The translations under genes and the position numbers were made by a program. This document shows, piece after piece, positions 8,921 to 45,191 of a DNA stretch of 64,000 nucleotides. Every line of letters starts with the position of its first letter. Position 1 is the first letter of the stretch. This DNA is from Coriobacteriia bacterium. Its GTDB lineage: Bacteria; Actinomycetota; Coriobacteriia; Coriobacteriales; Atopobiaceae. The stretch is taken from contig JAUMVN010000003.1 of NCBI GenBank assembly GCA_030530145.1, positions 23,037 through 87,036 on the forward strand, read 5' to 3'. The notes below the pieces were generated by a model, which had not been told where the DNA came from, did no database searches, and saw only the letters and a program-made list of their open reading frames with translations.

Positions 8921-10228
8921 CTAAACCAACCTCCTCAGCGTCCTGCTGCAATTCTCGGCTATCTCTATTTTCATTGGCTCGCCAACCTCATGAGCTCCGG
9001 GAAAACCAGCAGCCAGCGCATGGTCAACCTCAGCCTCGACCGCCGGCGGGATCATCTCCGCCATAGTCCTGAACCGGCCTACCAGCATGTCTGCGTTTAA
9101 GCCGATTTCGCCAAGGCCGCAGTTGTCCACCATCTTCTCAACCTGCTCGGCACCCACGTGGCCAAAGCGGTTCTCGCCGCCGATGGACAACGCCGCGCGA
9201 AGAGGCTTCCTCGGACGCGGGCTCAGGCTCTGGTATGCAGCGATCGAGGCCACATCATAGAGGGGCGCCAGCCTGATGTCTCCCACGGATGGGTAAACCA
9301 GGGAATGGTTCTTTGCGTGAGCGTCTGTCGCGCCTATTAAATAGTTGAAGAATAGATACAGAATGAATCGATAGGCGTTCGATCGACTCGCCGCACCCGT
9401 GGAACGGAGCAAACTGATTATCCTCGGCGTGTTTGGCCCTCCCTGGTCGGCGTACTTGCACAGAGGCGAGACGCCAAGAGCCTGGCACAAGTCTTCTTGA
9501 TGGACCCGCTCTACACCCTCTTCATTTCTGACGCGGTCATACCGCTCCACAACAATAGCCCACTCATCGCCAAAACGCTCGAAAGACGTATGGGCGACAG
9601 GCATTCCGATGGACTCTGCAATGCGCATCGAGAGGTACTCAACGAGAGCCTGGTTCTCCAAACCGGAGACCCCGGGCTTGAGAATATGCGTGGTCGGTGA
9701 GGAACCCTCGCACCGATACCAACACCCGTCGATTCGGCAGAGAGCAATCTTAGCCTGGCAACCGCCAAGCGACCAGCGCCCTTCAGATGCGTCTTTACCC
9801 GTCCATGCCGCGGCCGCGCTTGATTGCATGTCCGCGAGAAGCCGAGCGATGTCGAAGTCCGACAGCTCTACAAGAGCGCCCAATCCGCCCTTTTCCCACT
9901 TGTCGTCAAGCGGAAGAACCCGAACAGCGCCCGGGCAATCACCGCCGATGTGCGCCAAGAGCTTAAAAGGATTCTCGCCGGAAACGCCGTACTTGGCCCC
10001 GATGGCGGCCCGCGTCGCGCCCTCGTCCGGAAGAAGGCCCATGAGATAGGGGCGAACAATGCGGTCACCGTATTCAGCAAGGCCCACGGGCATCGAGAGC
10101 GACAAGGGAACCCCGTCGTAGCCGGAATCGTAGCGAAAGGCAAGGGCACCGGTGGATGCCTGCGACAAGATGCCGCAGCGGTTCTGACCAATATAAACCG
10201 CAAGCTCGGAGATGTGGCGAGCGCTCAT
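8921..10228 (-). CDS. hipA: HipA-family Ser/Thr kinase toxin (copy 1)
   Basis: HipA N-terminal couple domain (LSLSMP..YLMGLLPD), WSLGGCQAK, THILKPG, HQEDLCQ, DAHAKNHS, LAPLYD. Confidence 0.92.
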   Translation of the reverse strand: MSARHISELAVYIGQNRCGILSQASTGALAFRYDSGYDGVPLSLSMPVGLAEYGDRIVRPYLMGLLPDEGATRAAIGAKYGVSGENPFKLLAHIGGDCPGAVRVLPLDDKWEKGGLGALVELSDFDIARLLADMQSSAAAAWTGKDASEGRWSLGGCQAKIALCRIDGCWYRCEGSSPTTHILKPGVSGLENQALVEYLSMRIAESIGMPVAHTSFERFGDEWAIVVERYDRVRNEEGVERVHQEDLCQALGVSPLCKYADQGGPNTPRIISLLRSTGAASRSNAYRFILYLFFNYLIGATDAHAKNHSLVYPSVGDIRLAPLYDVASIAAYQSLSPRPRKPLRAALSIGGENRFGHVGAEQVEKMVDNCGLGEIGLNADMLVGRFRTMAEMIPPAVEAEVDHALAAGFPGAHEVGEPMKIEIAENCSRTLRRLV

Positions 10229-30390: not shown

Positions 30391-30723
30391 TTAGTTGGCT
30401 GCGGAGGCAGCGTCGGCAGAGGCGGGGGCCGCGGGCTTCTCGCCGTCGGCGGCGTTCGCCGCGTCGATGGCGTCCATGGCTTGGAGAAGCGCCTGCGAGA
30501 ACTGGTCGGCGCAGGAGGTCTTGCGCGGGCCGCAGAGGTTGCCCTTGAGGACCTCGGCGACCTCCTCGGTCGGGCGGCCGGCCACGAGCTTGGAGATGGC
30601 GGCGAGGTTGCCGGAGCAGCCGCCCTCGAAGTTGACGGCCTCGATCGTCTTGCCGTCGTCGGAAAGGTCGATGTGAATCATGCGCGAGCAGACCCCGCGC
30701 GGACGGAAATCAACGTGCTGCAT
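30391..30723 (-). CDS. TIGR03905-family TSCPD-domain protein
   Basis: Start MQHVDFRPRGVCSR; GGCSGNLAAISKLVAG, CGPRKTSCADQ. Confidence 0.85.
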   Translation of the reverse strand: MQHVDFRPRGVCSRMIHIDLSDDGKTIEAVNFEGGCSGNLAAISKLVAGRPTEEVAEVLKGNLCGPRKTSCADQFSQALLQAMDAIDAANAADGEKPAAPASADAASAAN

Positions 30724-30801
30724 TGCGAATCCCCTCTCTTTGATTGCGCGTTCCAGTATACCCGCGGCCAGCGCGGGGCCGCAGGCGGCGCGCGGGATGG
30801 G

Positions 30802-30923
30802 CTCGAGGTGGTACCTCGTACACCACCTCGGCCGATTTTCTTGGCAGTTTCGCGCCACCTCGGCGAGAATCGCCTCCAGGTGGCGCCACCTCGAGGGCAA
30901 CACCACCTGGAGGCACCACCTCG
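30802..30923 (+). repeat. Repeat family D, copy 1 (~120 bp, about eight CCACCTCG/CGAGGTGG motifs)
   Basis: Core GCGATTTTCTTGGCAGTTTCGC(A/G)CCACCTCGGCGAGAA..GCCTCCAGGTGGCGCCACCTCGAGGGCAACACCACCT is shared with four other copies. Confidence 0.92.
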
Positions 30924-30936
30924 CCGGGCAACAGCG

Positions 30937-32148
30937 CTACGCCAACGCCCGCCCCGAAACGATGCGACAGACCCCCTCGGTGCTGGAAATCTCCTCAAGC
31001 ACGTCGATGATCTGGTCCGACTGGAAGAACTCGCCGCGACGCCGGTTCCCCATCGGGCGCAGCACGCCGTACTCAACGGCCCTTCTTACCAGGGAAAGAG
31101 CGGCGCGGGGAGTAATTCCGAGGCGCTTGGCCAGGTAGTCGATGCTCACCACGGGCTGCTCGACCAGCACGGCGGGCAGGCGATGGATGCTCGACCCCTT
31201 CCGCTCGGTGAACCTGCGGCCCCATTCCTCGACGACCGCATCGACCCGCATCGCCGTCAGGTTCCCCACGACGACCGCCAGCTCAAGCGCATCAACCAGA
31301 CGCTCGATAACGCTTACGGGATTCCCCTGCTGATACTCCGTGATGGCCGCCATGTACGCGTCGACATCGTGAAGCAAGCCCGCCGACACCGGAAGCGTCG
31401 TCTGGCTCAACACACCCTCGTCGCGCAGGATCTTGTGCAGCAGAACGCGTCCGGTCCTTCCGTTCCCATCGATAAAAGGATGAATCGTCTCAAGCTGAGC
31501 ATGAGCTATCGCCGCCTTCACAATGGGGTCGACGTCATCCCGCCCGGCGAATTCAACCAGATCGTCAAGGTAGCCGCGCACTCGTGAGCTCCGGGGCGGC
31601 ACGTAGGCGGCGTCATGGGGGCTGTATGACGATCCGCCCACCCAGACTTGCTCGTCTCTGAGCTCGCCGCCGAAGCTTCCCTCGGCGCCATTGATAAGCG
31701 CAGCATGGATTCCCAGGATGCTGTCGACGGTAAGAGGAGCGCTCAGGGCCAGGGCTTTTCTCATCGCCTCGATATTGCCGACGATGAGCTTTGCGTTGTG
31801 CGGGGCATCGGGCGAGACCTCGGCTAAGGCCACGTTCCGCGCGCTGGAAGTGAGGCTCTCGATCTGGGAGCTCGCGGAAGATTCGCTTCTGAGCAGCATG
31901 GCGGGCAAGGCATAGCCGCGCGCCTTCTGCTCGGTGTCGAAGCGCGAGAGCTTGACGAGGAGCTCGGAGATTCGGGCGCCGAGCGCGGCGGGCACAACGA
32001 GGGTCCTGTCCGAGATGTAGAGAGGGACCGCAGCTTCATACGTTGAGCCGATCTTTCGCCGCTGGGTCTTCGAGATGTAGGGAAGAAGGTCAGGGTCGGA
32101 GACCCAAGGCAGCGTTTCAGACCCAATCGGGGGCCATTGAGCAGTCAT
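30937..32148 (-). CDS. Fic-family protein with C-terminal HTH
   Basis: Canonical HPFIDGNGRTGR; N-terminal SSASSQIE segment where the inhibitory helix usually lies; start MTAQW at 32148 after GGAGG. Confidence 0.92.
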   Translation of the reverse strand: MTAQWPPIGSETLPWVSDPDLLPYISKTQRRKIGSTYEAAVPLYISDRTLVVPAALGARISELLVKLSRFDTEQKARGYALPAMLLRSESSASSQIESLTSSARNVALAEVSPDAPHNAKLIVGNIEAMRKALALSAPLTVDSILGIHAALINGAEGSFGGELRDEQVWVGGSSYSPHDAAYVPPRSSRVRGYLDDLVEFAGRDDVDPIVKAAIAHAQLETIHPFIDGNGRTGRVLLHKILRDEGVLSQTTLPVSAGLLHDVDAYMAAITEYQQGNPVSVIERLVDALELAVVVGNLTAMRVDAVVEEWGRRFTERKGSSIHRLPAVLVEQPVVSIDYLAKRLGITPRAALSLVRRAVEYGVLRPMGNRRRGEFFQSDQIIDVLEEISSTEGVCRIVSGRALA

Positions 32149-32164
32149 CGCGAATCCTCCCTTG

Positions 32165-32245
32165 TGCAATTTCGCTTCCGATTAGTATAGCTAACGGAAG
32201 TGAATTGCATTTCACTTCCGTTAGTGCGGGCACATCGGAAGCAAA
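32165..32245. promoter_or_regulatory. Four-copy operator-like array upstream of fic
   Basis: TTCGCTTCCGATTAG / CTAACGGAAGTGAA / TTCACTTCCGTTAG / CATCGGAAGCAAA in alternating orientation. Confidence 0.65.
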
Positions 32246-32265
32246 GTAATACACCAAGTACAAAT

Positions 32266-32298
32266 AGCCGCCCCGGGCTCGGAGAGCTCGGGGCGGCT
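32266..32298 (-). terminator. Adhesin terminator hairpin (copies also at 36524-36556 and 41283-41312)
   Basis: AGCCGCCCCGGGCTC..GAGCTCGGGGCGGCT just after each adhesin stop codon. Confidence 0.8.
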
Positions 32299-32325
32299 GG
32301 TGCGCAGGTGGTTATCCGCTGCTAC

Positions 32326-34338
32326 TTACTTCTTGCGGCGAATCCTGGAAACAACGACGCCGAGGACGCCGGTGCCGGCGATGGCAGCGATCGCCTCGTT
32401 GGCAAGAAGCGCGTCGCCGGTCTTCGGGGTGGCGGACTTCTTTGCGGCGGAGCCGTTGTCCTTGCTGTCGCTGGCCTTCTTCCCGTCATCCTTCTTGGAC
32501 GGGGTCACGTCGTCGGCCTTGGTCACCTTAAGGGTGCCAAGCACGGTCTTGACGTCGTAGTTGTTGGCGTCGGTGCCGGCGTTCAGGGTGTAGGTGAAGG
32601 TGTTCTTGGACTCACCCACCTCGGTCTGGGAGCCGGTCACACTATAGGTCGCGCCCTGACCGGACACGAAACCGTCGCCCGAGACAGTCACCTTGTTGTT
32701 GGTCAACGCCTTGCCGTTGTAGGTCTTCTCGGCGGATGCGGAGGTCAGGACCACGGAGCGCTTAGTGACGGTCAGGCTCTGGGTCGTAGTGACATATCCG
32801 GTGTAGTGGCCATCGACAAACGCGCGGACGTTAACGGTCTTCGTGTCGCTTACATTGATGGCGGTGATGTCGGTGGGGTTCGTCGTCCACGTGCCGTCGG
32901 CCTTCTGGTACTCGACCGTCACAGCGTAGCCGTTGTCATCCTTCGCCGTCGCGGTACCGGCGGCGAGGGCAGCCCCATCATAGACCTTGGACGCATCCTT
33001 GCCGGTGAGCACGATGTGATCGCTCGCGTTGTCGGACGCGAACTCCCAGGTACCGGTGAAGGTAACGCCGTCCTTGGTCATGGTCGCGGAATCGTGGTCC
33101 CAGCCCTTGAAGGTCCAGGTGCCGTCGGAGACCTTGACGGTCTGCTCTTTCGGAGACGCAGGGTACACGGTATCGCCCACGTAGTGGACCTCATCATCGG
33201 TGGGCAGGCAGGCGTTCACCGCGTCGGGAACCGACTTGCCGTCGGCATCGACAAACTTATAGGTAATGACCGCCTTCGAGGCGACCTGACAGTCGCACGA
33301 GGCGTCCTTGGTAATGGTTGTCGTGGTGGTGACGGAAGAGCCTGCCTTCATGCTCGTCTTGACCGAGTAGGTGGTGGAAGCGTTGACGGCAAACGTTACA
33401 GTCCCCTTGTCGTACGCATCCTGAGAAACCTTATAGCTAACGGTGCCCACGTAGGTACCGTCGGCCTTACGAGTGAGGTTTGAGACCGTGACGGACTCGC
33501 CGTTAACGGTGGCGCTGTTCACCTTGACGTCGGAAACCGTGACGTCCTTCTGGGTCACGGGCTTCTGAGGGGCGAGCGTAACGGTGAAGGTGAGGGTATC
33601 GCCGGGCTTAACGCCGGTGGTCTTATCGCTCTTAGCGGTAACAGTTAGGTCCGGGCTCTGGCCCTTGATGGAAGTGGAGACGGTATTCGGCTGCTCGGAG
33701 CCGGCCTTTCTGCTCCATCCAAAGACGCCGATGTAACCAGCGGTCTTCGCCGCGGTAACAACATTGCTCAGGCCGGGATAATCCTTGATGTTTTCGAAGG
33801 TCTCGGTATCGTCCTGCAGGCTGTAGAAGTCGCCGTTGCTCAGCCGATCAACGCCAATATCGGTGAGCAGATAGCCATCGTCCGGCTTGATGAAGAACAG
33901 AACGTAGCCGTCGGCGCCGTCGAAATCATAGCCGTCCTTCTTGTAGTAGAAGTTTTCAATGATGTTTTTACCCTGAGCCTGGGTAAAGTCATCAGCCGTT
34001 ACCCCCTGCGTATCCTTTTCGCAGTGATACGCGAAGTACGCCACGTCCGCGTTCTCAATCTCGGCTTCGATGATGAATTCGTTAAAGCCCCAGCTTGCGC
34101 GCAGGACCTGGGCGCTGTTCAAGCTCGTGAGCGCGATGGCGTTGTCGTCAACGGTGGTGGAATCGGCCTCTACCGCAGACTCGTCTTCAGACGACCCCCC
34201 GACGGTATTTGCATACGCCGGGACAACGGCGCCGAAGGTCTGCGTCAGCATAAGAGCGGACAGCGCGACGGCCGTCACCTTGCCCTTCGTGTTGGGTTCG
34301 CCGCTCCCCGGGGTGCGGTCCTTGCAAAACAAAGCCAT
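32326..34338 (-). CDS. Sortase-anchored surface protein 1 (SHIRT-like and MBG-like domains, TPKTGD anchor)
   Basis: True start MALFCKDR at 34338 after GAGGAG (the ORF-track extension to 34881 is spurious); signal peptide ..VVPAYA; GTWTFKGWD, SAEKTYNGKAL; TPKTGD-TM-RIRRKK. Confidence 0.85.
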   Translation of the reverse strand: MALFCKDRTPGSGEPNTKGKVTAVALSALMLTQTFGAVVPAYANTVGGSSEDESAVEADSTTVDDNAIALTSLNSAQVLRASWGFNEFIIEAEIENADVAYFAYHCEKDTQGVTADDFTQAQGKNIIENFYYKKDGYDFDGADGYVLFFIKPDDGYLLTDIGVDRLSNGDFYSLQDDTETFENIKDYPGLSNVVTAAKTAGYIGVFGWSRKAGSEQPNTVSTSIKGQSPDLTVTAKSDKTTGVKPGDTLTFTVTLAPQKPVTQKDVTVSDVKVNSATVNGESVTVSNLTRKADGTYVGTVSYKVSQDAYDKGTVTFAVNASTTYSVKTSMKAGSSVTTTTTITKDASCDCQVASKAVITYKFVDADGKSVPDAVNACLPTDDEVHYVGDTVYPASPKEQTVKVSDGTWTFKGWDHDSATMTKDGVTFTGTWEFASDNASDHIVLTGKDASKVYDGAALAAGTATAKDDNGYAVTVEYQKADGTWTTNPTDITAINVSDTKTVNVRAFVDGHYTGYVTTTQSLTVTKRSVVLTSASAEKTYNGKALTNNKVTVSGDGFVSGQGATYSVTGSQTEVGESKNTFTYTLNAGTDANNYDVKTVLGTLKVTKADDVTPSKKDDGKKASDSKDNGSAAKKSATPKTGDALLANEAIAAIAGTGVLGVVVSRIRRKK

Positions 34339-34667
34339 TGTTGCTCCTCTTCGAACCGGCCGGAAAGCCCCTCTTGCCGGCCATGGCGCCCCATCCGGCG
34401 AATGCAGACAGGTCGCCCATTTCATTCCTGATTGTGATTCTGCCGTAAAGGAGCTGGCTTCGACGGGGGAACTTGAGGGTGACTTGACGGTTTGGAGCGC
34501 GAAAGAGCGCAGCCGAGCAATCATTCTTGCCTGTTTGCCTTTGGTTTTACCTGCGGAGGGTTCGAACCGGCGGCGATGCCGAGGCGGCCCTCGACCGATA
34601 CGTAATTTATCCGGGGGTACCTTAGAACCGAGAGGTCGAATCACGGATTCTCCACATGCTGAATGGC

Positions 34668-34805
34668 GCTCGAAGTGGTGTTTGGTCCGAGGTGGTGCGC
34701 GCGGCGCCACCTCGAGCGATTTTCTTGGCAGTTTCGCACCACCTCGGCGAGAAATGCCTCCAGGTGGCGCCACCTCGAGGGCAACACCACCTCGAGGCAC
34801 CGCCG
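34668..34805 (+). repeat. Repeat family D, copy 2
   Basis: Same core and orientation as copy 1; ends 13 bp from the hipA-2 stop. Confidence 0.92.
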
Positions 34806-34817
34806 CGCACCGCTCCG

Positions 34818-36071
34818 TCACACGTGGGCGAGCACTTCTCGCCTCGGAGCGATGTCCTCCAAGAGCGTCTCCGCATCCCACGCAACATCCTCAAACTCGT
34901 CGCCAGCCTCGGAAGCCGCCGCCATGACCGCATCTCCCACGGATTCCGCCACCTCATGAGCGATCTTCTGGAAGGTTTTCTTTCCCAATACGAAGTCCCT
35001 TGAGCATTCGCGCAGGTCGTCTGCCTCGATGCTGTCGATGTCCCACTTGCCGTTGATCGCCATGGCCATCGTGCGCGAGAGGTCCTCGTACCATGTCGTG
35101 CACACGAGGTCGTACGCCGGCGCCAGCCGCACCGTCGACCAGTCCACTCCGTACACGAGCGAGAAGTTCTTCAAGTGAGCGTCGCAGTTTCCGATCGCGT
35201 AGTTGAAGCACGTGAGCCGCGCGAGGCGGCGAACATCCTCCAGCACGTCGTCGGACTGTTCATAGAGAAGGCTGGCCAACGCCCTTATCGACCCGCCTTC
35301 GAGCTCGGCGTACTTCGAGCCTGAGGTCAGGCCGAACGCCTGGGTAAGGTCCTCCTGGTGCAAACGCGTAACACTCAGTGCGCCGGAATCCCCAGCAACC
35401 AGGCGGTCGAACCTACGGCTGCAGAGAACCGGCACGCCGAAGTCGAGGAGATGAACTTCCGCTGCATCGATTCCGCACAGCGACGCCGCTCGGGTGCAGA
35501 GAAACTCGAGGCCGGTCAGCCGGTCCCGTGCGCCGACCTTGAGTATATGAGTCGAGGCCGCGCAGTTGAGGCATCTGAACCAGCCGCTGGTCAGAGGCTC
35601 GTTCGGACCGTGTGCCAGGCCAACCTTGCTCTGCGTACCGGCAAGCGAGAGCCGGTCGGAACCGTTGAGCTCCGCCATGCTTGCGCGCCGGGAGAACAGT
35701 TCTTTGAGCTCGGATGACGAGACCGGCTCGTATCGCGGCGGCTCTGGCAGCTCACCCGCCGTGATGAGAAGGTCGCCGACGCAGTCGAGGCCACAGCTGC
35801 CCAGCATAGAGAGCCAGTCGTTCTCCCGTACATGCAGCTCCGCGGACATAATTCGCCTCGCTGCGCCTTCGGGAACGAGGCCCTCGAAGAACGGCTCTGC
35901 CTCTGCCGGCGAGAAGCGCTTGTCCGAAATAGGCAGGCTAGCCGAGATAGGGCGGTTCGACAGGTCGGCCGAATAAGCGGCATCGTATTCGAACGACCCG
36001 TCAGCAAGAAGTCGCCCAACTAGGGCTGGCTCCGCTTCACCGTATCGATATACCTCGAGATCGTTCTCCAT
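34818..36071 (-). CDS. hipA: HipA-family kinase toxin (copy 2)
   Basis: ISASLP..FFEGLVPEG, LSLAGTQSK, THILKVG, HQEDLTQ, DAHLKNFS, LAPAYD; strongly diverged from copy 1. Confidence 0.92.
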   Translation of the reverse strand: MENDLEVYRYGEAEPALVGRLLADGSFEYDAAYSADLSNRPISASLPISDKRFSPAEAEPFFEGLVPEGAARRIMSAELHVRENDWLSMLGSCGLDCVGDLLITAGELPEPPRYEPVSSSELKELFSRRASMAELNGSDRLSLAGTQSKVGLAHGPNEPLTSGWFRCLNCAASTHILKVGARDRLTGLEFLCTRAASLCGIDAAEVHLLDFGVPVLCSRRFDRLVAGDSGALSVTRLHQEDLTQAFGLTSGSKYAELEGGSIRALASLLYEQSDDVLEDVRRLARLTCFNYAIGNCDAHLKNFSLVYGVDWSTVRLAPAYDLVCTTWYEDLSRTMAMAINGKWDIDSIEADDLRECSRDFVLGKKTFQKIAHEVAESVGDAVMAAASEAGDEFEDVAWDAETLLEDIAPRREVLAHV

Positions 36072-36286
36072 TCGCGCCTCTCACCTCCCACGATGGTCAG
36101 GCCGAGGACCGCGACGAGGCGCAGCACGCGGTCGAGCTCGGCAGTCGGCTTCCCGCGCTCGACCTGCGAGACGAAGTTGATGCCGACGTTAGCCGCATCG
36201 GCGACCTCGGCCTGGGTATAACCCTTCTTCCGGCGCTCGTCCCGTATCAGTTTGCCGAGCGCCGCGGCATCGAGAATCACTTGCAT
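36020..36286 (-). CDS. hipB: HipB-like HTH antitoxin (copy 2)
   Basis: Start MQVILD at 36286; LIRDERRKKGYTQAEVADAANVGINFVSQVERGK; overlaps hipA-2 by 52 nt. Confidence 0.88.
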   Translation of the reverse strand: MQVILDAAALGKLIRDERRKKGYTQAEVADAANVGINFVSQVERGKPTAELDRVLRLVAVLGLTIVGGERREWRTISRYIDTVKRSQP

Positions 36287-36302
36287 AACAGTTGCTTTCA
36301 CG

Positions 36303-36347
36303 CGAACGAATGAATTCTTGTTCAGTTTAGCAGATTTCACTCGTTCG
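36303..36347. promoter_or_regulatory. Candidate HipB-2 operator (inverted repeat)
   Basis: CGAACGAATGAA (36303-36314) and TTCACTCGTTCG (36336-36347), 11/12 match, directly upstream of the start codon. Confidence 0.55.
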
Positions 36348-36391
36348 GGGGAATTTGCGGTTATCCTGCGTCTGCCCCGTCGGTAGACAGG

Positions 36392-36511
36392 CCGAGGTGG
36401 TGCCGTGCGCGCCGCCTCGGGCGATTTTCTTGGCAGTTTCGCACCACCTCGGCGAGAAATGCCTCCAGGTGGCGCCACCTCGAGGGCAACGCCACCTGGA
36501 GGCACCACCTC
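36392..36511 (+). repeat. Repeat family D, copy 3
   Basis: Same core; abuts the adhesin-2 terminator. Confidence 0.92.
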
Positions 36512-36582
36512 AACGCACGAAAAAGCCGCCCCGGCTCAATTGAGCTCGGGGCGGCTGGCGCGCAGGCGGTTTCCGCAGCTAC

Positions 36583-39500
36583 TTACTTCTTGCGGCGGAT
36601 CCTGGAAGCGACGACGCCGAGGACGCCGGTGCCGGCGATAGCGGCAATCGCCTCGCTGGCAAGAAGCGCGTCGCCGGTCTTCGGCGTGGCCTCCTTCTTG
36701 GTGTCCTTCTTCGTCTCCTCCTTCTTCTCTTCCTTCTTCGGCTCGGTGTAGGTGTTGTTGAACACAACGCTCGCACCGGAGACCTTGGCCTCGAGCTGGC
36801 CCTTGCCGTTGTCGGTGACGGTGACGGTCACGTCATAGGACTTGGTGTCGTAGGTGACGTCGGCCTGGTGGTCATTGACCTCGGAGATCGTGAACTTGTA
36901 CTCACCGGCGGCGGTGAATTCCTGAGAGAACTTGATGTTGCCGTTGGCGTCGTTCTTCGCGGTCTCGACGACGTTGCCGTCAGCGTCCTTCAGCTGGAAG
37001 CTGAACTGGCCGTCCTTGAGGGTGGCGCCGGAAAGGACCTTGGCGGCGCCGAAGGTGACGCTCGCGGTGCCGGCCTTGTAGGTGTTGTTGAAGGTGCCGT
37101 TGGCGACGACCGGGGTGGCAACGAGCTTGCCCTCGCCGTTATCGACGACGGTGATGGTGACGGTGGCCTCGTGGGTGTCGTAGGTGACGCCCTCGCCGTC
37201 GGTGCCCTGCTCGGCCACGGTGTACTCGTAGGTGCCGGCCTCGTTGAAGGTGAAGTCGTTGAAGCTGACAGTCTTGCCGGCCTTGGTAGCGACGCCCGTG
37301 GTGCCGTTGCTCGGCATCGGGTTGTTCGCGTCCTTCGCGGTGATGACGAAGGTGAACTTATCGTCGTCGGTCCAGTCGCGGCCCTCGAGGTTCTTGGTCA
37401 CCTCGACGCCGGAGGTCAGCTTGGCGGGCTCGGACGCGTACTTGTTCTTGAAGGTGATGCCCTCGTCGGACTCGGTCGCGGCCTTGGCGGAGAGGGTGCC
37501 GTCGCCGTTGTCGGTGACGGTGACGGTCACGGTGTACGTGGACTCGTCGTAGGTCACGCCGCCGAGGGTGCCCTGGACCTCCTTGACGGTGTAGACATAG
37601 TCACCGGCCGCGGTGTAGGTCTGAGCCTTGAAGGAAACCTTGCCGTCAGCGGCGTTGGTCGCGGTGTCGACAACGTTGTTCTGGGCGTCGACCAGCTGGA
37701 AGCTGAACTCGCCGGCCTTGAGGGTGCGGCCCTCGAGGGACTTGGTCACGTCGACGTCGGTGGTCACGGAGTACTCAACCGGCTCGGTCTTATAGGTGTT
37801 CTTGAAGGTAATGCCCTCGCCGGACTCGGTGGAGGCCTTGGCGGAGAGGGTGCCGTCGCCGTTGTCGGAGACGGTGACCTTCACGGTGTACTCGGACGTG
37901 TCGTAGGTCACGCCGCCGAGGGAACCCTTGACCTCGCGTACCTTGTAGGTGTGCTCGCCGAGGTCAGCGGCGGTATAGGTTAGAGCCTTGAAGTACACCT
38001 TGCCGTCATCGCCGTTGGTGGCCTCGGCAACGACCTCGTCGCCGTCGACCAGCTGGAAGGTGAACTCGCCCTCGTTGAGCGCGCGGCCCTCGAGGGACTT
38101 GGTCACGTCGACGTCGGCGGTCACGGAGTACTCAACCGGCTTGACGGTGTAGGTGTTCTCGAAACCGGCGATCTTCGAGGCGGTGGCGGTCATGGTGCCG
38201 TCGCCGTTGTCGACCACGGTGACCGTGAAGGTCTTGGCCTCAGCGTCGTTGGTCACGCCAGGCATGGAACCGGACTCGGTGATGGTGTAGTGGTACTCGC
38301 CGGCCTCGGTGAAGGTGATCTTGCCGAAGGCAACGCTGCCGGAAGCATCGTTGGTAACGGTGGTCTGCTCAGGGAGCGGGCCGTCGGTGGAGCTGATGGT
38401 GAAGCTGAAGTCGCCGCCCTTGAGCGCGGGAGGCGTGACGCCGTCCTGGGTAGCCTTGATCACCTTGGTGGTAAGGAGGCTCTCGATGGTGGTGGAGTCG
38501 GCCTTGTAGGTGTTCTTGAAGGTCTTGTCCTCAGGCGTGGCAACGGTGGCCACGAGCTGGCCCTCGTTGTTGTCGGTCACGGTAACGGTGACCTGCTTGG
38601 CGCCCTGGGTGACAGCGGTAACGCCGCCAGGCAGGTCGTCGGTGACCTCGGAGACCTCGTAGGTGTAGACGCCGGCCTTGTTGTAGGTGATGTCGCCGAA
38701 GGAGACGGTACCGTCAGCCGTGTTTTTAACGGTGGTCAACTCGGGCAGCGGAGCGTTGTTGTTGCTCGTCGCCTCGATCTGGAAGCTGAACTCGCCGGCC
38801 TTGAGGTCGCGGCCCTCGAGCACCTTCGTGAAGGAGAAGTTCGCGGCACCGTCGACGGTGACAGGCTTGGCCTCATAGCTGTTCTTGAAGACGCAGGAAG
38901 CGCCGTCCTCGTAGCTAGTGGTCGCGACCAGCTTGCCATCCTTCTCGACGACCTCGACGGTCACGACGGAGGTGTGCGTGTCGTAGGTGTAGCCCGCGGG
39001 AGCGGCGCCGGTCTCGGTCACGTTGAACTTATAGGTGCCGGACTCGTAGAAGGTGACCGCGCCGAACGAGAAGGACTTGGCCTCGCCGTCCTTGGCGCCC
39101 GAGACGGATGCGGTGTCCGCGCCCTGGGCGATGGAAACCTTATCGCCGTAGTTCTCGGCGGCGGTCAGCTTGAAGTTGAACGCGGAGGTCATGTCGTGGC
39201 CGGTCAGCGTCTTCGTGCCCTTGATGGCGGTCTCGCCCTCGAGCGTGACGGGCCAGGTCTCGTGGGTGTTGGTCACGGTGAGGGTGCCCGAGCCGGTGAC
39301 GGCGTCGCTGTAGGTGGTGACATAGCCGTCAACCGCGTCCTCCTCGACGGCCCAGGTGAGCTGGCCCACGCCCGCGGGGACGGTGACGGTCTTGATCCAG
39401 TTATCGGCCGCGGTGAGCTGGAAGGGGGCGCCGTAGTTCTGGCCGTTCTTCTTCAGCTGGACGGTGACGGAGGCGGGGAGCTGGGCGTCGCCGGTGTTCT

Positions 39501-40827
39501 CCCATGCCTTGGTCACGGTGACGGTGTCGACGGGGACCTTAATGGTCGGCTCCTCGTAGCCGTCGGACTTCTCGTCGGAGACCTGGTCGGGCTTGCCGGT
39601 CTCCTTGACGATGGTCTTGTAATAGACCTTGGTGCCAGTGGCGTCGTTGGAGGGGAGCTCAGTCTCCTTGCCGGCGGCGGCAGCGGCGTCGTAGGCCTTC
39701 TGGTTAGGCTTGATGGTAAAGATGACCTTGTAGGTCGCGCCCTTCTCGAGCTCGTAGTCCTTACCGTTCACGGTCGAGAGGTCCCACGTCAGGGTGTCGC
39801 CGCTGATGGTCGCCTGAGGGGCGTCAGTCCACGTAGAGGTGCCCTGGTCGGTGCCCTTCTCGTAGCGGACGTTTACGACGTCGTTGAAATCGACGTACTG
39901 GGAGAGCTTATCGACGATCTTCACGTCCTTGTAGAACGCGGACTTCTTGATGGTCTGGGCAATCTGCTCGAAGGCGGTCTTCACCTTCTCCTCGGACGTG
40001 CCGTCGAGGAAGGTGCTATTGGTGTCCTTTGCGAAGGACTGCATCTTGGTGGCGTCGTTGGAAATGCTTACCGCGAACATCCCAACGGAAGTTCCGCGCT
40101 TATTCGCCTCGTCCTTGGCAGCGCCGTAGTTCCAGCCATTGCGGTCAGAATTGCCGGTGCCGTAGACCTGGTAACCCCAATTATAATCATCTGCACGGTC
40201 ATTGTACTTACTGTCGCGGTACGTCGCGTTACCGTCGGACAGGAAAACGATGTACTTCTCGGCGCCCTCGCGGCCCGTGGAAAGGCTATTCGCGTTGGAG
40301 AGACCAGCTTCCCAGTTTGTTCCCTGGTTTTGATTGGCGCGTGACGGCACGCTGCTGTAAACAGCATTCGCGTCGGTGGTCCAGCCCTGAACCGTCTGAG
40401 CATGGGTGCCGAATGTGACCACAGACATCTTGATCTGCTGGTTCTCCGGCAGCTTGGAGTTGTTCTCGTTCAGGAGGGTATCCGCAAGCACCTTAGTGGC
40501 GTTCTTTGCGGCCTGCATCTTAGAAGTCCGGCTCCCTCCACCGATTCCCTCATTCATCGAGGTGGAGACGTCCACGACGACCACGACGTCGATCGGCTTG
40601 CCGTACTCGGACTCGGCCGCGTCGCCGATGACGGAGAGGGCCAGGTCGTAGGTGCCATCGCCGTTGTCGGTGATGGTCTTGTGGTGCGCGGGGGCCTGGT
40701 CGGTGATGTCGCTCGCCAGGGCAGCGGTCGGCACGAGGGCCGTCGCGCCGAGAATAGCGCTAAGCGCCACGGCGAAGAGTGCGACCCCCCCTCGCAGCTG
40801 TTTTCCGGCCTTACTAAACAACTTCAT
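36583..40827 (-). CDS. Sortase-anchored adhesin 2: vWA domain, CnaB-like domain, about seven Spy0128/FctA-like repeats, TPKTGD anchor
   Basis: Signal peptide; MIDAS-like DVSTS; TNWEAGL, VFLSDG; repeated xTKxLxGR..F.F.L modules; TPKTGD-TM-RIRRKK. Confidence 0.88.
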   Translation of the reverse strand: MKLFSKAGKQLRGGVALFAVALSAILGATALVPTAALASDITDQAPAHHKTITDNGDGTYDLALSVIGDAAESEYGKPIDVVVVVDVSTSMNEGIGGGSRTSKMQAAKNATKVLADTLLNENNSKLPENQQIKMSVVTFGTHAQTVQGWTTDANAVYSSVPSRANQNQGTNWEAGLSNANSLSTGREGAEKYIVFLSDGNATYRDSKYNDRADDYNWGYQVYGTGNSDRNGWNYGAAKDEANKRGTSVGMFAVSISNDATKMQSFAKDTNSTFLDGTSEEKVKTAFEQIAQTIKKSAFYKDVKIVDKLSQYVDFNDVVNVRYEKGTDQGTSTWTDAPQATISGDTLTWDLSTVNGKDYELEKGATYKVIFTIKPNQKAYDAAAAAGKETELPSNDATGTKVYYKTIVKETGKPDQVSDEKSDGYEEPTIKVPVDTVTVTKAWENTGDAQLPASVTVQLKKNGQNYGAPFQLTAADNWIKTVTVPAGVGQLTWAVEEDAVDGYVTTYSDAVTGSGTLTVTNTHETWPVTLEGETAIKGTKTLTGHDMTSAFNFKLTAAENYGDKVSIAQGADTASVSGAKDGEAKSFSFGAVTFYESGTYKFNVTETGAAPAGYTYDTHTSVVTVEVVEKDGKLVATTSYEDGASCVFKNSYEAKPVTVDGAANFSFTKVLEGRDLKAGEFSFQIEATSNNNAPLPELTTVKNTADGTVSFGDITYNKAGVYTYEVSEVTDDLPGGVTAVTQGAKQVTVTVTDNNEGQLVATVATPEDKTFKNTYKADSTTIESLLTTKVIKATQDGVTPPALKGGDFSFTISSTDGPLPEQTTVTNDASGSVAFGKITFTEAGEYHYTITESGSMPGVTNDAEAKTFTVTVVDNGDGTMTATASKIAGFENTYTVKPVEYSVTADVDVTKSLEGRALNEGEFTFQLVDGDEVVAEATNGDDGKVYFKALTYTAADLGEHTYKVREVKGSLGGVTYDTSEYTVKVTVSDNGDGTLSAKASTESGEGITFKNTYKTEPVEYSVTTDVDVTKSLEGRTLKAGEFSFQLVDAQNNVVDTATNAADGKVSFKAQTYTAAGDYVYTVKEVQGTLGGVTYDESTYTVTVTVTDNGDGTLSAKAATESDEGITFKNKYASEPAKLTSGVEVTKNLEGRDWTDDDKFTFVITAKDANNPMPSNGTTGVATKAGKTVSFNDFTFNEAGTYEYTVAEQGTDGEGVTYDTHEATVTITVVDNGEGKLVATPVVANGTFNNTYKAGTASVTFGAAKVLSGATLKDGQFSFQLKDADGNVVETAKNDANGNIKFSQEFTAAGEYKFTISEVNDHQADVTYDTKSYDVTVTVTDNGKGQLEAKVSGASVVFNNTYTEPKKEEKKEETKKDTKKEATPKTGDALLASEAIAAIAGTGVLGVVASRIRRKK

Positions 40828-41149
40828 GCGACCACTCCCAACGTTTACTACGTGTATGCAGCGTTTATAGAACCCGACCGAATTTCGGCAGGATTCATCC
40901 AGTGAGACAAAGGTATTGTCGCAGAGGTTGAGTTGCAGGGGGATGAAGGTTGGTTGAATGTTGGTCGAGGGGGTACGTCTTAACTTGAGCCGAGCTGAAA
41001 CCGCGAGCCGCTAGATGCTAGCCTGAAGGAAATTCTGCTTGCTTTTCTGATATTTCATCAGATAACAGTCTTCACAGGTTCTTCACAGTTAGCGGTAAAT
41101 TAGGGCAAATCAGTGCGCCCGGGGTACAGAGTCTTCGGCCACCGCCACG

Positions 41150-41271
41150 CTCGAGGTGGTGCGCGCGACACCACCTCGAGCGATTTTCTTGACAGTTTCG
41201 CACCACCTCGGCGAGAAACGCCTCCAGGTGGCGCCACCTCGAGGGCAGCACCACCTGGAGGCACCACCTCG
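41150..41271 (+). repeat. Repeat family D, copy 4
   Basis: Perfect 12-bp stems CTCGAGGTGGTG/CACCACCTCGAG and GCCTCCAGGTGG/CCACCTGGAGGC; abuts the adhesin-3 terminator. Confidence 0.92.
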
Positions 41272-41341
41272 ACGCATGAAACAGCCGCCCCGGGCTCGGA
41301 GAGCTCGGGGCGACCGGCGCGCGGGAGATTATCCGCAGCGT

Positions 41342-43342
41342 TTACTTCTTGCGGCGGATCCTGGAAGCGGCGACCCCGAGGATGCCGGTGCCGGCGATGG
41401 CTGCGATAGCCTCGCTGGCAAGAAGCGCGTCGCCGGTCTTCGGCGTGGCGCCCTTCTTGGTTTTCTTCGTGGCGGTCTTGTTGGAGTCGTCCTTACCGGA
41501 GTCGTCCTTCTTGCCCTCGTTCTTCTTCGTGCCGGTATAGGTGTTGGTCACGGTGAGGGTGCCCGAGCCGGTGACGGCATCGCTGTAGGCGGTGGTGTAG
41601 TTGGGCACAGCATCCTCGACAACGGACCAGGTGAGCTGGCCCACGCCGGCGGGGACGGTGACGGTCTTGGTCCAGTTGTCGCCCGCAGTGAGCTGGAAGG
41701 CCTCGCCGTAGTTCTGGCCGTTCTTCTTCAGCTGGACGGTAACGGAGGCGGGAAGCTGGGCGTCGCCGGTGTTCTTCCACTCCTTGGTCACGGTGACGGT
41801 GGCGACGGGGACCTTGATGGTCGGCTCCTCGTAGCCATCAGTACCTTTGTACCTGTCGACCTCCTCGTTATTCTTCTTTGCGACGACGTCATAGGACAGC
41901 TTGGTGCCGTCGGGATCGTTGGAGGGCAACTCGGTCTCCGCGCCGGCAGCCGCTGCGGCGTCGTAAGCATTCTGGTTCGGCTTAACGGTAAAGGTCATCT
42001 TGTAGGTGACGCCGTCCTCGAGCTCACCTTCGCCCGAGAGGTCCCAAGTGATGGTCTTCCCGCTCACAGTAGCCTTGGGAGCACCGTCCCAGGTGGTAGC
42101 CACGCCATCGACGACCTTCTCGTAGCGGACGTCGGTCACGTCGGCAAAGTCGACGTAGTCAGAAAGCTGGTCGGTAATCTTCACGTTCTCGTAGGAGGCG
42201 GAGTTCGTCACGAGGTTGGCAATCTTGGCGAACGCGTTCTTGAGGGTCCCCTCATCGTAGCCGTCGACCTCGTTGTTGCCCTCGTAGTAGGTTCCGTTGA
42301 TATCGGAAGCGAACTTCTTCATCTCGGTCGGGTCGGTCGAGACGTTCACCAGGAGCATCTGAACCGAGGAATCGATCTTCTGAGCCTCGGCCAATGCGGA
42401 CGCGTAGTTACGCCCAAGCTTGTCAGAACTGCCGGTGCCGTACTTACCGGTCGAGAATGCCCAACGGTCGTCACTGCCATGAATAGCGTCGTCGTAGCCG
42501 TGATCGTGACTGTCCCCCCAGGGATTACCCTGGACGAAGCCATTGACGCTGGTACGCAACGTGGGAAGACCGTCGGAGACAAAGACGATGTACTTCTTCG
42601 CGCCATCTCGACCGTCTTCGGTAAGCTTCTTGTTGGCGGCAGCGAGGGCATCTTCCCAGTTCGTTCCCCCGTTGGCGGTAAGTTGGTCGACCGCGGCCTT
42701 GAACTCGTCCGAATCGCCACCCTTGTAGACCACATCATCCGCCTGCGCCTCGGTCGAATATGTGACCAGCGAGACCTGAACGTCGCTCTTCTCGTTCTCA
42801 ATCAGCTGGTCGCCCAGCGTGTTGAGAGCCTTCTTTACGACCTCATTCCACGTCGTTTCGTAGAAGACTGGATCGCGGCCATCACTCTTGCATCGGTCTA
42901 GATAGTCCATTTTTTGACCGTTAGACATCTTGTAATACCACGTGTCTTTGTCGCAGCTTCTTATCTTTCCGTAATAGACCTCAACATAATCGTTGATACC
43001 CTGGTTAATGAACCCGATTACGCCCATGTACGACTTCGACGTATCTGGCGAGGAAACCTCGCGTATGGGCCGACTCATCGAGCCGGAGACGTCCTGCACC
43101 ACGACGACGTCGGCCTTCGTCGAGGTGGTGGAAGCCTCGACGGCTCCCTTGACCGTAAGGGACAGATCGTAGGTGCCGTCGCCGTTGTCGGTGATCGTCT
43201 TCTCGTGCTCAGGAACCTGATCGTTGATGGCCGCGAGCGCAGTCGACGGCGCGACAGCCGCAAGGGCCAAAAGCGCGCTAAGCGCTACCGTGAAGAGCGC
43301 GACCCCCCGAAGCCTCTTTCCAGCATTAGCGAACGACTTCAT
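41342..43342 (-). CDS. Sortase-anchored adhesin 3: vWA domain, CnaB-like domain, TPKTGD anchor (short paralog of adhesin 2)
   Basis: Start MKSFANAGK at 43342 after AAGGAG; DVSGS, TNWEDAL, VFVSDG; shares N-terminal KTITDNGDGTYDL and the C-terminal modules with adhesin 2. Confidence 0.88.
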   Translation of the reverse strand: MKSFANAGKRLRGVALFTVALSALLALAAVAPSTALAAINDQVPEHEKTITDNGDGTYDLSLTVKGAVEASTTSTKADVVVVQDVSGSMSRPIREVSSPDTSKSYMGVIGFINQGINDYVEVYYGKIRSCDKDTWYYKMSNGQKMDYLDRCKSDGRDPVFYETTWNEVVKKALNTLGDQLIENEKSDVQVSLVTYSTEAQADDVVYKGGDSDEFKAAVDQLTANGGTNWEDALAAANKKLTEDGRDGAKKYIVFVSDGLPTLRTSVNGFVQGNPWGDSHDHGYDDAIHGSDDRWAFSTGKYGTGSSDKLGRNYASALAEAQKIDSSVQMLLVNVSTDPTEMKKFASDINGTYYEGNNEVDGYDEGTLKNAFAKIANLVTNSASYENVKITDQLSDYVDFADVTDVRYEKVVDGVATTWDGAPKATVSGKTITWDLSGEGELEDGVTYKMTFTVKPNQNAYDAAAAAGAETELPSNDPDGTKLSYDVVAKKNNEEVDRYKGTDGYEEPTIKVPVATVTVTKEWKNTGDAQLPASVTVQLKKNGQNYGEAFQLTAGDNWTKTVTVPAGVGQLTWSVVEDAVPNYTTAYSDAVTGSGTLTVTNTYTGTKKNEGKKDDSGKDDSNKTATKKTKKGATPKTGDALLASEAIAAIAGTGILGVAASRIRRKK

Positions 43343-43630
43343 GCGACCACTCCTTAGCTTTGCCGCGCATGCGGCAACCGATTCGCCCAATAATCCGAAG
43401 CTATTTTTGCGGATGCTTGTTTTCGGAGGGGTGACAGTCGCTTAACGATTGGTTGAGAGTAACGCACAGGCTTGAAGTTTGCTGAAATAGATTACGAGAA
43501 AACTGCGCTTCACAGGCGGTTTCTTATGTAGTTTGCTTCATATCCTTATATGTAAAGAAGCACAGGTCTTCACAGGTTCTCCACTTTATGGAAGACTTCA
43601 CTCAGGAGAGGGGGCTAGAACCGAGTTGTC

Positions 43631-43756
43631 CCAGGTGGTGTATAGCTCGAGGTGGTGCGCGCGACACCACCTCGGGCGATTTTCTTGGCAGTTTCGCGCC
43701 ACCTCGGCGAGAAACGCCTCCAGGTGTCACCACCTCGAGGGCAACACCACCTCGAG
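43631..43756 (+). repeat. Repeat family D, copy 5
   Basis: Same core and orientation; lies just past the purB terminator. Confidence 0.92.
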
Positions 43757-43844
43757 CGCACCGGGCGTACGCGGCAAGAAAAACGCCGCCGACCCGAGCG
43801 GGGACGGCGGCGCGAACAGCGCTTCTTACCAGTGAATCGCGACC

Positions 43845-45191
<1,347 letters not shown>

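Follow-up and report, generated by a model that had tools for sequence, protein, structure and literature searches.

A dispersed REP-like palindromic repeat spaces a strain-variable island of adhesin, HipBA and Fic modules at the purB|TSCPD site of a Coriobacteriia genome

The stretch analysed here, referred to as the window, comprises 64,000 nucleotides (contig C26, positions 23037-87036) of a 2.47-Mb Coriobacteriia genome (G000; 66% GC, 57 contigs, 97.5% complete). Between purB and a gene encoding a TSCPD domain, it carries an island in which five co-oriented copies of a palindromic repeat, named D, space modules encoding surface adhesins, a HipBA toxin-antitoxin (TA) pair and a Fic protein. 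The number and order of these modules differ by strain, apparently under the action of D, which is, by anatomy and distribution, a lineage-restricted, dispersed mosaic repeat akin to the repetitive extragenic palindromes (REP) and bacterial interspersed mosaic elements (BIME). As judged from the sequences compared, the modules are probably rearranged by RecA-type recombination or gene conversion between D copies, at a hotspot that would be filled horizontally.

The purB-TSCPD interval was compared among relatives, namely the congener genomes G001, G005 and G008 and individual loci or contigs (L-numbers), metagenomic ones included. Ten of these contigs (L156-L165), from different samples, all encode an identical PurB and were retrieved by exact-protein look-up with the PurB of a metagenomic relative. 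Read from purB to TSCPD, the window shows the order D5, adhesin 3, D4, adhesin 2, D3, hipBA, D2, adhesin 1 with fic, D1. In G008, purB is followed by D, hipBA, D and adhesin 3, then, beyond a contig gap, by adhesin 2, D, a module of adhesins 1 and 1b, D and TSCPD, and the array of G001 is a single adhesin between two D copies. G005 has an adhesin fragment and a SHIRT adhesin with one diverged D. Among the contigs with identical PurB, L159 and L162 hold a solo D between purB and TSCPD and no module, whereas L156 displays purB, D, adhesin 3, D, hipBA, D, adhesin 2 and D. L157, L158, L160, L161 and L164 display purB, D, hipBA, D, adhesin 2, D and a module of adhY and fic (then D and TSCPD), an arrangement that recurs in five samples. 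Arrays of 0, 1, 3 or 4 modules are found in related strains and species, n modules always coming with n+1 co-oriented D copies and the empty state being a solo D. Wherever a contig covers both flanks of hipBA, each of them is a D copy, and the pair takes slot 1, 2 or 3 according to the strain. An earlier annotation of the window, the sequence-only reading, had proposed that D-bounded modules are the units of gain, loss and reordering, and this comparison bears it out.

The repeat search of the window returns D as one five-copy direct family, with all copies on the + strand and starts at 30804, 34688, 36393, 41152 and 43648. D1 (30802-30923) is located between the 3' end of fic and the TSCPD gene, and the orthologous D|TSCPD junction is present in G008, G001 and L145. 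D2 (34686-34807), about 10 bp past the hipA stop codon and upstream of adhesin 1, has a 70-bp exact block in common with D3 (36391-36512), which stands past the adhesin 2 terminator and upstream of hipB. D4 (41150-41271) follows the adhesin 3 terminator, upstream of adhesin 2. D5 (43646-43760) follows the purB terminator, upstream of adhesin 3, and the purB|D junction is kept in G008, G001 and L145-L165. Alignment of the five copies with MAFFT gives a core of about 120 nt, of which about 100 columns are invariant. Together with the repeat search and hairpin prediction, it confirms the five co-oriented palindromic repeats of about 120 bp described earlier. In the window, 31 occurrences of the 8-mer CCACCTCG are counted where 3.9 would be expected, and the five D copies contain 23 of them. 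As for the claim of about eight such motifs per copy, exact 8-mers number only three to five, and about eight are reached only if the variants CCACCTGG and CCAGGTGG are included.

Every copy is predicted to form two strong hairpins, whose stems measure 10-14 and 12-20 bp and whose folding z-scores range from -4.4 to -8.1 relative to shuffled sequences. Hairpin 1 is CGAGGTGGTG-loop-CACCACCTCG, and hairpin 2 is CCTC(C/G)AGGTGGCGCCACCTCGAGG plus extensions. On the + strand of D, hairpin 1 followed by ATTTTCTT fits a terminator pattern. Overall, D comprises a T-rich linker, optional additional half-units and two conserved hairpins with variable loops, made from the 10-mer CACCACCTCG. Its stems hardly change between copies, its loops do so freely, and many copies lack the optional third part; with stems so constant and a single covarying pair, covariation says little on the hairpins. 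The left edge, for instance in L111 and L145, can include one to three tandem CCCGAGGTGGTGTTTGG half-units, and in a G008 copy (L112:2141-2308), 1.5 units of the CACCACCTCGGCGAGAAACGCCTCCAGGTGG block are duplicated internally. This internal expansion and contraction is a mosaicism resembling that of BIME elements. A permissive Rfam scan of 28-46 kb gave no match for D, only a chance miRNA match.

Within the window, a profile search finds D confined to the array, as had been stated, the nearest further copy being a weak one about 4 kb before the window start. The broader idea of a repeat special to the array locus fell with genome-wide mapping. Indeed, an nhmmer profile built from the five copies detects about 22 D copies on 16 contigs of G000, 17 of them outside the array on 15 other contigs. 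All are intergenic, and 21 of the 22 adjoin at least one gene 3' end, many being 25-80 bp past a stop codon or in the gap between two convergent genes. Relative to the upstream gene, D is found in either orientation genome-wide. The neighbours of the dispersed copies are neither adhesins nor toxins, seem to be ordinary housekeeping genes, and include nrdD, pgi, serS, malQ and genes for ABC transporters, as assigned from C-terminal sequence or Pfam matches only. Thus, D displays the features of REP and BIME: short imperfect palindromes, strictly extragenic, in many dispersed copies, in both orientations and with mosaic units. The presence of five of about 22 genomic copies within 13 kb has a Poisson P of ~1.6e-7. 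Mean identity is 85.5% among island copies, 83% between island and dispersed copies and 82% among dispersed copies. The notion that island copies are far more alike than dispersed ones was rejected, the 94-98% figures behind it having had an island-derived consensus as reference.

The D family is found in four of 19 species of the genus. Orthologous D copies are common to G000 and G008, and the same site is without D in five other congeners. The TSCPD-proximal D variant of G005 (L120:15866-15971) is diverged, with CTCCAGGTGGTA...CACCACCTGGAG and compensated stem changes, and several 33-nt partial D matches are found elsewhere in that genome; therefore, related D sub-families exist in congeners scored as D-negative. 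Scanning of JGI metagenome contigs for the D core gave 0 matches, and a description of the D repeat in Collinsella was not found in the searchable literature. An extension of the module idea beyond the island was also rejected. D is not a general cassette boundary: the D-ABC-ABC-D segment of contig C7 is an operon conserved across the genus, and variable segments next to D elsewhere hold ordinary accessory genes, such as those for LuxR, phosphotransferase system and oxidoreductase proteins.

The mosaic structure of D was analysed by aligning all island copies with their flanks. The left flank of a copy, including one extra half-motif, goes with the left-hand module, and the right end goes with the right-hand gene. 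In between, the hairpin 1 loop and the central TTCTCAGCGTTTTC and TTCTCCGCAGTTTC variants form patches whose boundaries vary by strain at the same junction. At the hipB<D<purB junction of L161, for instance, the loop and the right end are of the purB type around a hip-type centre, whereas the centre is purB-type in L157 and L160. The two D copies on either side of hipBA have private variants in common: they are 98% identical in G008, both contain the TCAGCG variant in L161, and in G000 they have the 70-bp exact block; other D pairs have exact stretches of 27-41 bp in common. Such a patchwork is expected from homologous recombination or gene conversion, not from a crossover at a single fixed point, and fits the alternative of RecA that the sequence-only reading had named in passing.

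In the mechanism proposed, the purB|TSCPD hotspot would receive transcription units of lower GC content, namely sortase-anchored adhesins, hipBA and an adhesin with fic, each spaced from the next by one direct D copy. Between direct D repeats, with their exact stretches of 27-70 bp, RecA-type unequal crossing-over and gene conversion would delete, duplicate and reorder modules, the blocks of about 330 nt formed by an adhesin 3' end, its terminator and D offering extra homology. Strain-to-strain exchange through crossovers located in D or in the core flanks would lead to an equal outcome: one D copy more than there are modules, down to a solo D once all modules are lost. Strict co-orientation would follow because unequal exchange between direct repeats and deletions permute order without inversion. 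RecA-type recombination is favoured because D copies are mosaic and because the genome, apart from XerD and an XerC-like protein, has no tyrosine recombinase and lacks resolvase-type recombinases and IS110 transposases. The resulting rearrangements may play a selective role in adhesin variation or TA stabilisation, and addiction modules may guard the array as the sequence-only reading proposed.

Several points weigh against this mechanism. Several of the arrays compared are short-read metagenome contigs, and the order adhesin 3, hipBA, adhesin 2 comes from one contig, L156, partly backed by L163. Chimeric assembly at D is unlikely in L156, though possible, because the D copies of this contig have exact stretches of at most 37 bp in common. 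In G005, adhesins occupy the site together with a single diverged D, so cargo can reside there without depending on D. Exact homology of 27-41 bp, as in most D pairs, is near the lower limit for RecA, and rates may therefore be low. Strict co-orientation and the n+1 rule are equally expected from a site-specific system. Finally, the D-bordered ABC genes on C7 are a conserved operon, not a mobile module.

The purB|TSCPD site itself is a conserved hotspot independent of D. PurB of G000 is 86% identical to that of the Collinsella aerofaciens group, and the organism is accordingly Collinsella-like, within the Coriobacteriaceae. In most loci of the C. aerofaciens group, as well as in 11 species of the genus, purB directly adjoins TSCPD. 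The downstream order at the unoccupied site is purB, TSCPD, a 407-residue gene product without Pfam or NCBIfam match, and a response-regulator gene. Where the C. aerofaciens group has cargo at this site, it comes without D and consists of SBP_bac_3 and GGDEF genes (L033:11487-14119, L031:2121-8311) and, in one genome, also of a 1116-residue Big_2 surface protein. The same spot being unoccupied or holding alternative cargo across relatives points to a hotspot. In the window, the insert has a GC content of 54-65% versus 65-72% in the flanks, and the island is best read as a horizontally acquired sortase-adhesin and TA island.

Such a hotspot could also work with D as a passive passenger, associated with terminators at gene 3' ends, while horizontal replacement proceeds through homology in purB, TSCPD and the adhesins in the manner of a minimal mobile element. 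This is consistent with the unrelated, D-free cargo of the C. aerofaciens group, with the G005 adhesins and with the co-variation of the right end of D with the right-hand gene. It also agrees with the divergence of the modules, which is far greater (82% identity for hipBA, 76% for adhesin 3) than that of the flanks (91-94%). Alone, however, replacement leaves unexplained the module permutation and the solo D at the empty site despite identical PurB, as well as the patchwork D centres common to non-adjacent junctions, and we consider this explanation unlikely.

Less probable still is a dedicated site- or structure-specific cassette system, in which D would be an attC-like folded site and a trans-acting recombinase would excise and re-insert modules. 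Several features of the island are as expected for it: co-oriented D copies exceeding the modules by one, a solo D where the site is empty, hipBA always D-bounded in three slots, and nearly invariant stems with variable loops, as for a hairpin recognised by a protein. However, no integron integrase is present genome-wide, the integron-integrase models scoring far below cut-offs. A whole-genome search with Pfam PF00589 retrieves two genes, neither of them in the window, which NCBIfam identifies as XerD (330.5 bits for a cut-off of 329.6) and XerC-like. No serine (resolvase-type) recombinase is found in the 97.5%-complete genome, and no IS110 transposase in G000. The D copies stand beside housekeeping genes in both orientations, their mosaic breakpoints vary, D has no Rfam counterpart, and more distant hipBA homologues lack it. 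The genome lacks intI, attI and Pc, nor is D confined to the array with one site per promoterless cassette, since 17 copies are outside it and adhesin 1 and fic have no site between them. The integron-like dedicated system put forward by the sequence-only reading is therefore not borne out. That D is the site of an integrase-less cassette system, with XerC/D, a structure-specific nuclease or an undetected protein moving modules genome-wide, is similarly improbable; if true, it would make D a functional analogue of integrons, Gram-positive and actinobacterial, derived from a dispersed repeat.

Candidate mobilisers were considered individually. One gene of the Y1_Tnp family resembling the REP-associated tyrosine transposases (RAYT) is found at 19.3-20.6 kb of contig C52 (L119:955-2203). 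It encodes 271 residues and matches NCBIfam REP_Tyr_transpos with E=1e-15, below the cut-off. It is bordered by 77-nt inverted repeats built from GAGAGCTTTGGGGAC, a family other than D, and this 15-mer has 21 exact matches at about 13 loci genome-wide. The GAGAGCTTTGGGGAC family and the RAYT-like gene constitute a second, separate system of the REP/REPIN-RAYT type. The RAYT-like transposase was rejected as mobiliser of D because its flanking repeat belongs to this different family, which also counts against a dedicated D system; a single-copy RAYT flanked by a cognate REP is not found for D. An IS110 bridge-type recombinase was rejected as well, none being encoded in G000 and the copy of L150 being inserted in an adhesin 5' end, not in D. 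This copy, a transposase of the IS110 family (DEDD_Tnp_IS110 and Transposase_20; L150:1900-3600, GCA_963609885.1), lies about 45 bp into the adhesin that follows hipBA and D, and unrelated genes lie past the insertion, an island truncation mediated by an insertion sequence in one relative. No dif-like 11-6-11 XerC/XerD site is visible in D by eye, by inspection only.

The least probable explanation makes D an element similar to the miniature inverted-repeat transposable elements (MITE), inserted independently behind each terminator, with the array as a static old tandem duplication; terminal inverted 10-11-mers (CGAGGTGGTG...CACCACCTCG), presence/absence polymorphism at orthologous sites and the terminator+D block common to the paralogous adhesins 2 and 3 are consistent with it, but no target-site duplication (the flanks are too diverged to read one) or matching transposase was found, and the locus is anything but static among strains whose PurB is identical.

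The genes of the island, with domains assigned by Pfam and NCBIfam, are all on the minus strand and have the content given by the sequence-only reading, namely Fic, a SHIRT adhesin, HipA with an HTH-type HipB, and two VWA adhesins. Five D copies delimit four modules, of adhesin 3, adhesin 2, hipBA, and adhesin 1 with fic. The conserved borders are the TSCPD-domain gene (TIGR03905; 30391-30723) on the right and purB, for adenylosuccinate lyase (43845-45191), on the left. The fic gene (Fic/DOC family; 30937-32148), with an intact HPFIDGNGR motif, shares its module with adhesin 1 without D between them and has no partner gene. Its homologue in L145 encodes 402 residues at the same position. Adhesin 1 (open reading frame 32326-34881) has a SHIRT domain and a C-terminal TPKTGD sorting signal. 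Adhesin 2 (36583-40827; 1414 residues) combines a signal peptide, VWA, DUF7604 and Cna_B domains, seven FctA repeats and a TPKTGD sorting signal. Adhesin 3 (41342-43342), with VWA, DUF7604 and Cna_B domains and a TPKTGD sorting signal, is a paralogue of adhesin 2 (45-48% identity). The three share a near-identical C-terminus, ATPKTGDALLA...RIRRKK, made of the sorting signal, a hydrophobic stretch and a basic tail. With their VWA, Cna_B, FctA and SHIRT domains and this C-terminal signal, they have the features of sortase-anchored (LPXTG-type) Gram-positive adhesins. A block comprising the adhesin 3' end, with its sorting signal, and an intrinsic terminator is found at 36520-36699 on the minus strand, with further occurrences at 41279-41458 and 32262-32442. 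In the adhesin 2 and adhesin 3 modules, this block and D together make a repeat of about 330 nt.

The hipA gene (34818-36071) encodes a kinase toxin with Couple_hipA and HipA_C domains. It overlaps the upstream hipB (36020-36286), which encodes an HTH_3/HTH_31 antitoxin of 88 residues as annotated in homologous loci. This arrangement is that of type II HipBA, and the pair is predicted to be a complete TA pair. The idea that D belongs intrinsically to a mobile hipBA unit was rejected, as hipBA homologues of other taxa (56-71% identity) are without D. A second hipA paralogue is present on the minus strand of the window at about 9107-10141 (C26:32143-33177), with 30% identity to the island HipA and no D near, and a third is found on contig C30. 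The longest open reading frames of TSCPD (30391-30906), adhesin 1 (32326-34881) and hipB (36020-36508) extend 5' over a D copy, which is then translated as '...GGVALEVAPPGG...'; the first 75 codons or so of the adhesin 1 frame, which cross D2, are spurious. Automatic gene callers may over-extend these three genes. The modules measure 1.7-4.8 kb, have their own terminators and leave 100-320 bp upstream of their genes. From this spacing, they appear to carry their own upstream regions, in which a promoter search detected none.

Collinsella and relatives are abundant human gut Coriobacteriia whose surface variation is little understood. The island offers a concrete and testable example in which REP-like repeats would provide portable homology to shuffle modules in a Gram-positive bacterium of high GC content. 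It would also illustrate that no integrase is required for an integron-like geometry of n cassettes and n+1 sites, reduced to a single site in the empty state. In metagenome assemblies of these taxa, D copies and the island probably act as break points and give rise to strain heterogeneity.

Several known systems share part of these features. REP and BIME are short extragenic palindromes present in tens of dispersed copies, often located after stop codons, and substrates for duplications and deletions. Like those of enterobacteria and pseudomonads, REPINs included, D is a short, GC-rich, imperfect and extragenic palindrome, occurring in both orientations with mosaic, expandable units, often just past stop codons or between convergent genes. 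However, its sequence is unrelated, it has no cognate RAYT, and it amounts to only about 22 copies, five of which are spacers of an array of gene modules. Chromosomal integrons, with the attC sites known in Vibrio as VCR, also have co-oriented imperfect palindromes of about 120 bp between co-oriented genes, interspersed TA pairs, cassettes varying in number and order by strain, and n cassettes for n+1 sites. Here, in contrast, IntI, attI and Pc are all missing, copies of the repeat are scattered among housekeeping genes, and crossover patches are variable. Moreover, the modules are of 1.7-4.8 kb with their own terminators and apparently their own upstream regions, and one of them holds two genes without a site between. 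In Acinetobacter, pdif modules are small, often of TA type, and bounded by repeated sites for which the housekeeping Xer recombinases suffice; XerC/D are the only tyrosine recombinases here too, whereas pdif sites alternate in orientation and are plasmid-borne, and D has no dif-like site on inspection.

The hif pilus cluster of Haemophilus influenzae is reportedly flanked by REP-like 'intergenic dyad sequences', the repeat being retained in empty strains. This cluster is located at purE-pepN (PMC3928620). As with the island, an adhesin or pilus cluster thus occupies a conserved intergenic site beside a purine gene and is present or absent according to the strain; unlike it, hif is a single operon rather than a shuffled array of modules, has no TA modules and belongs to a Gram-negative, naturally competent host. 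In Neisseria, minimal mobile elements and the repeats NIME and dRS3 associate dispersed repeats in recombination-prone intergenic DNA with nearby surface-protein or toxin cassettes. Conserved flanking genes with alternative cargo between them are found there as here, whereas the repeats and host are others, exchange in Neisseria occurs by transformation, and dRS3 is also a phage integration site. By analogy, the purB|TSCPD island functionally most resembles these repeat-flanked adhesin islands at conserved hotspots, hif and the minimal mobile elements of Neisseria. What is new is the array geometry, together with the strain-level permutation of independent modules, a TA pair included, on a dispersed REP-like repeat in one lineage of the Coriobacteriia.

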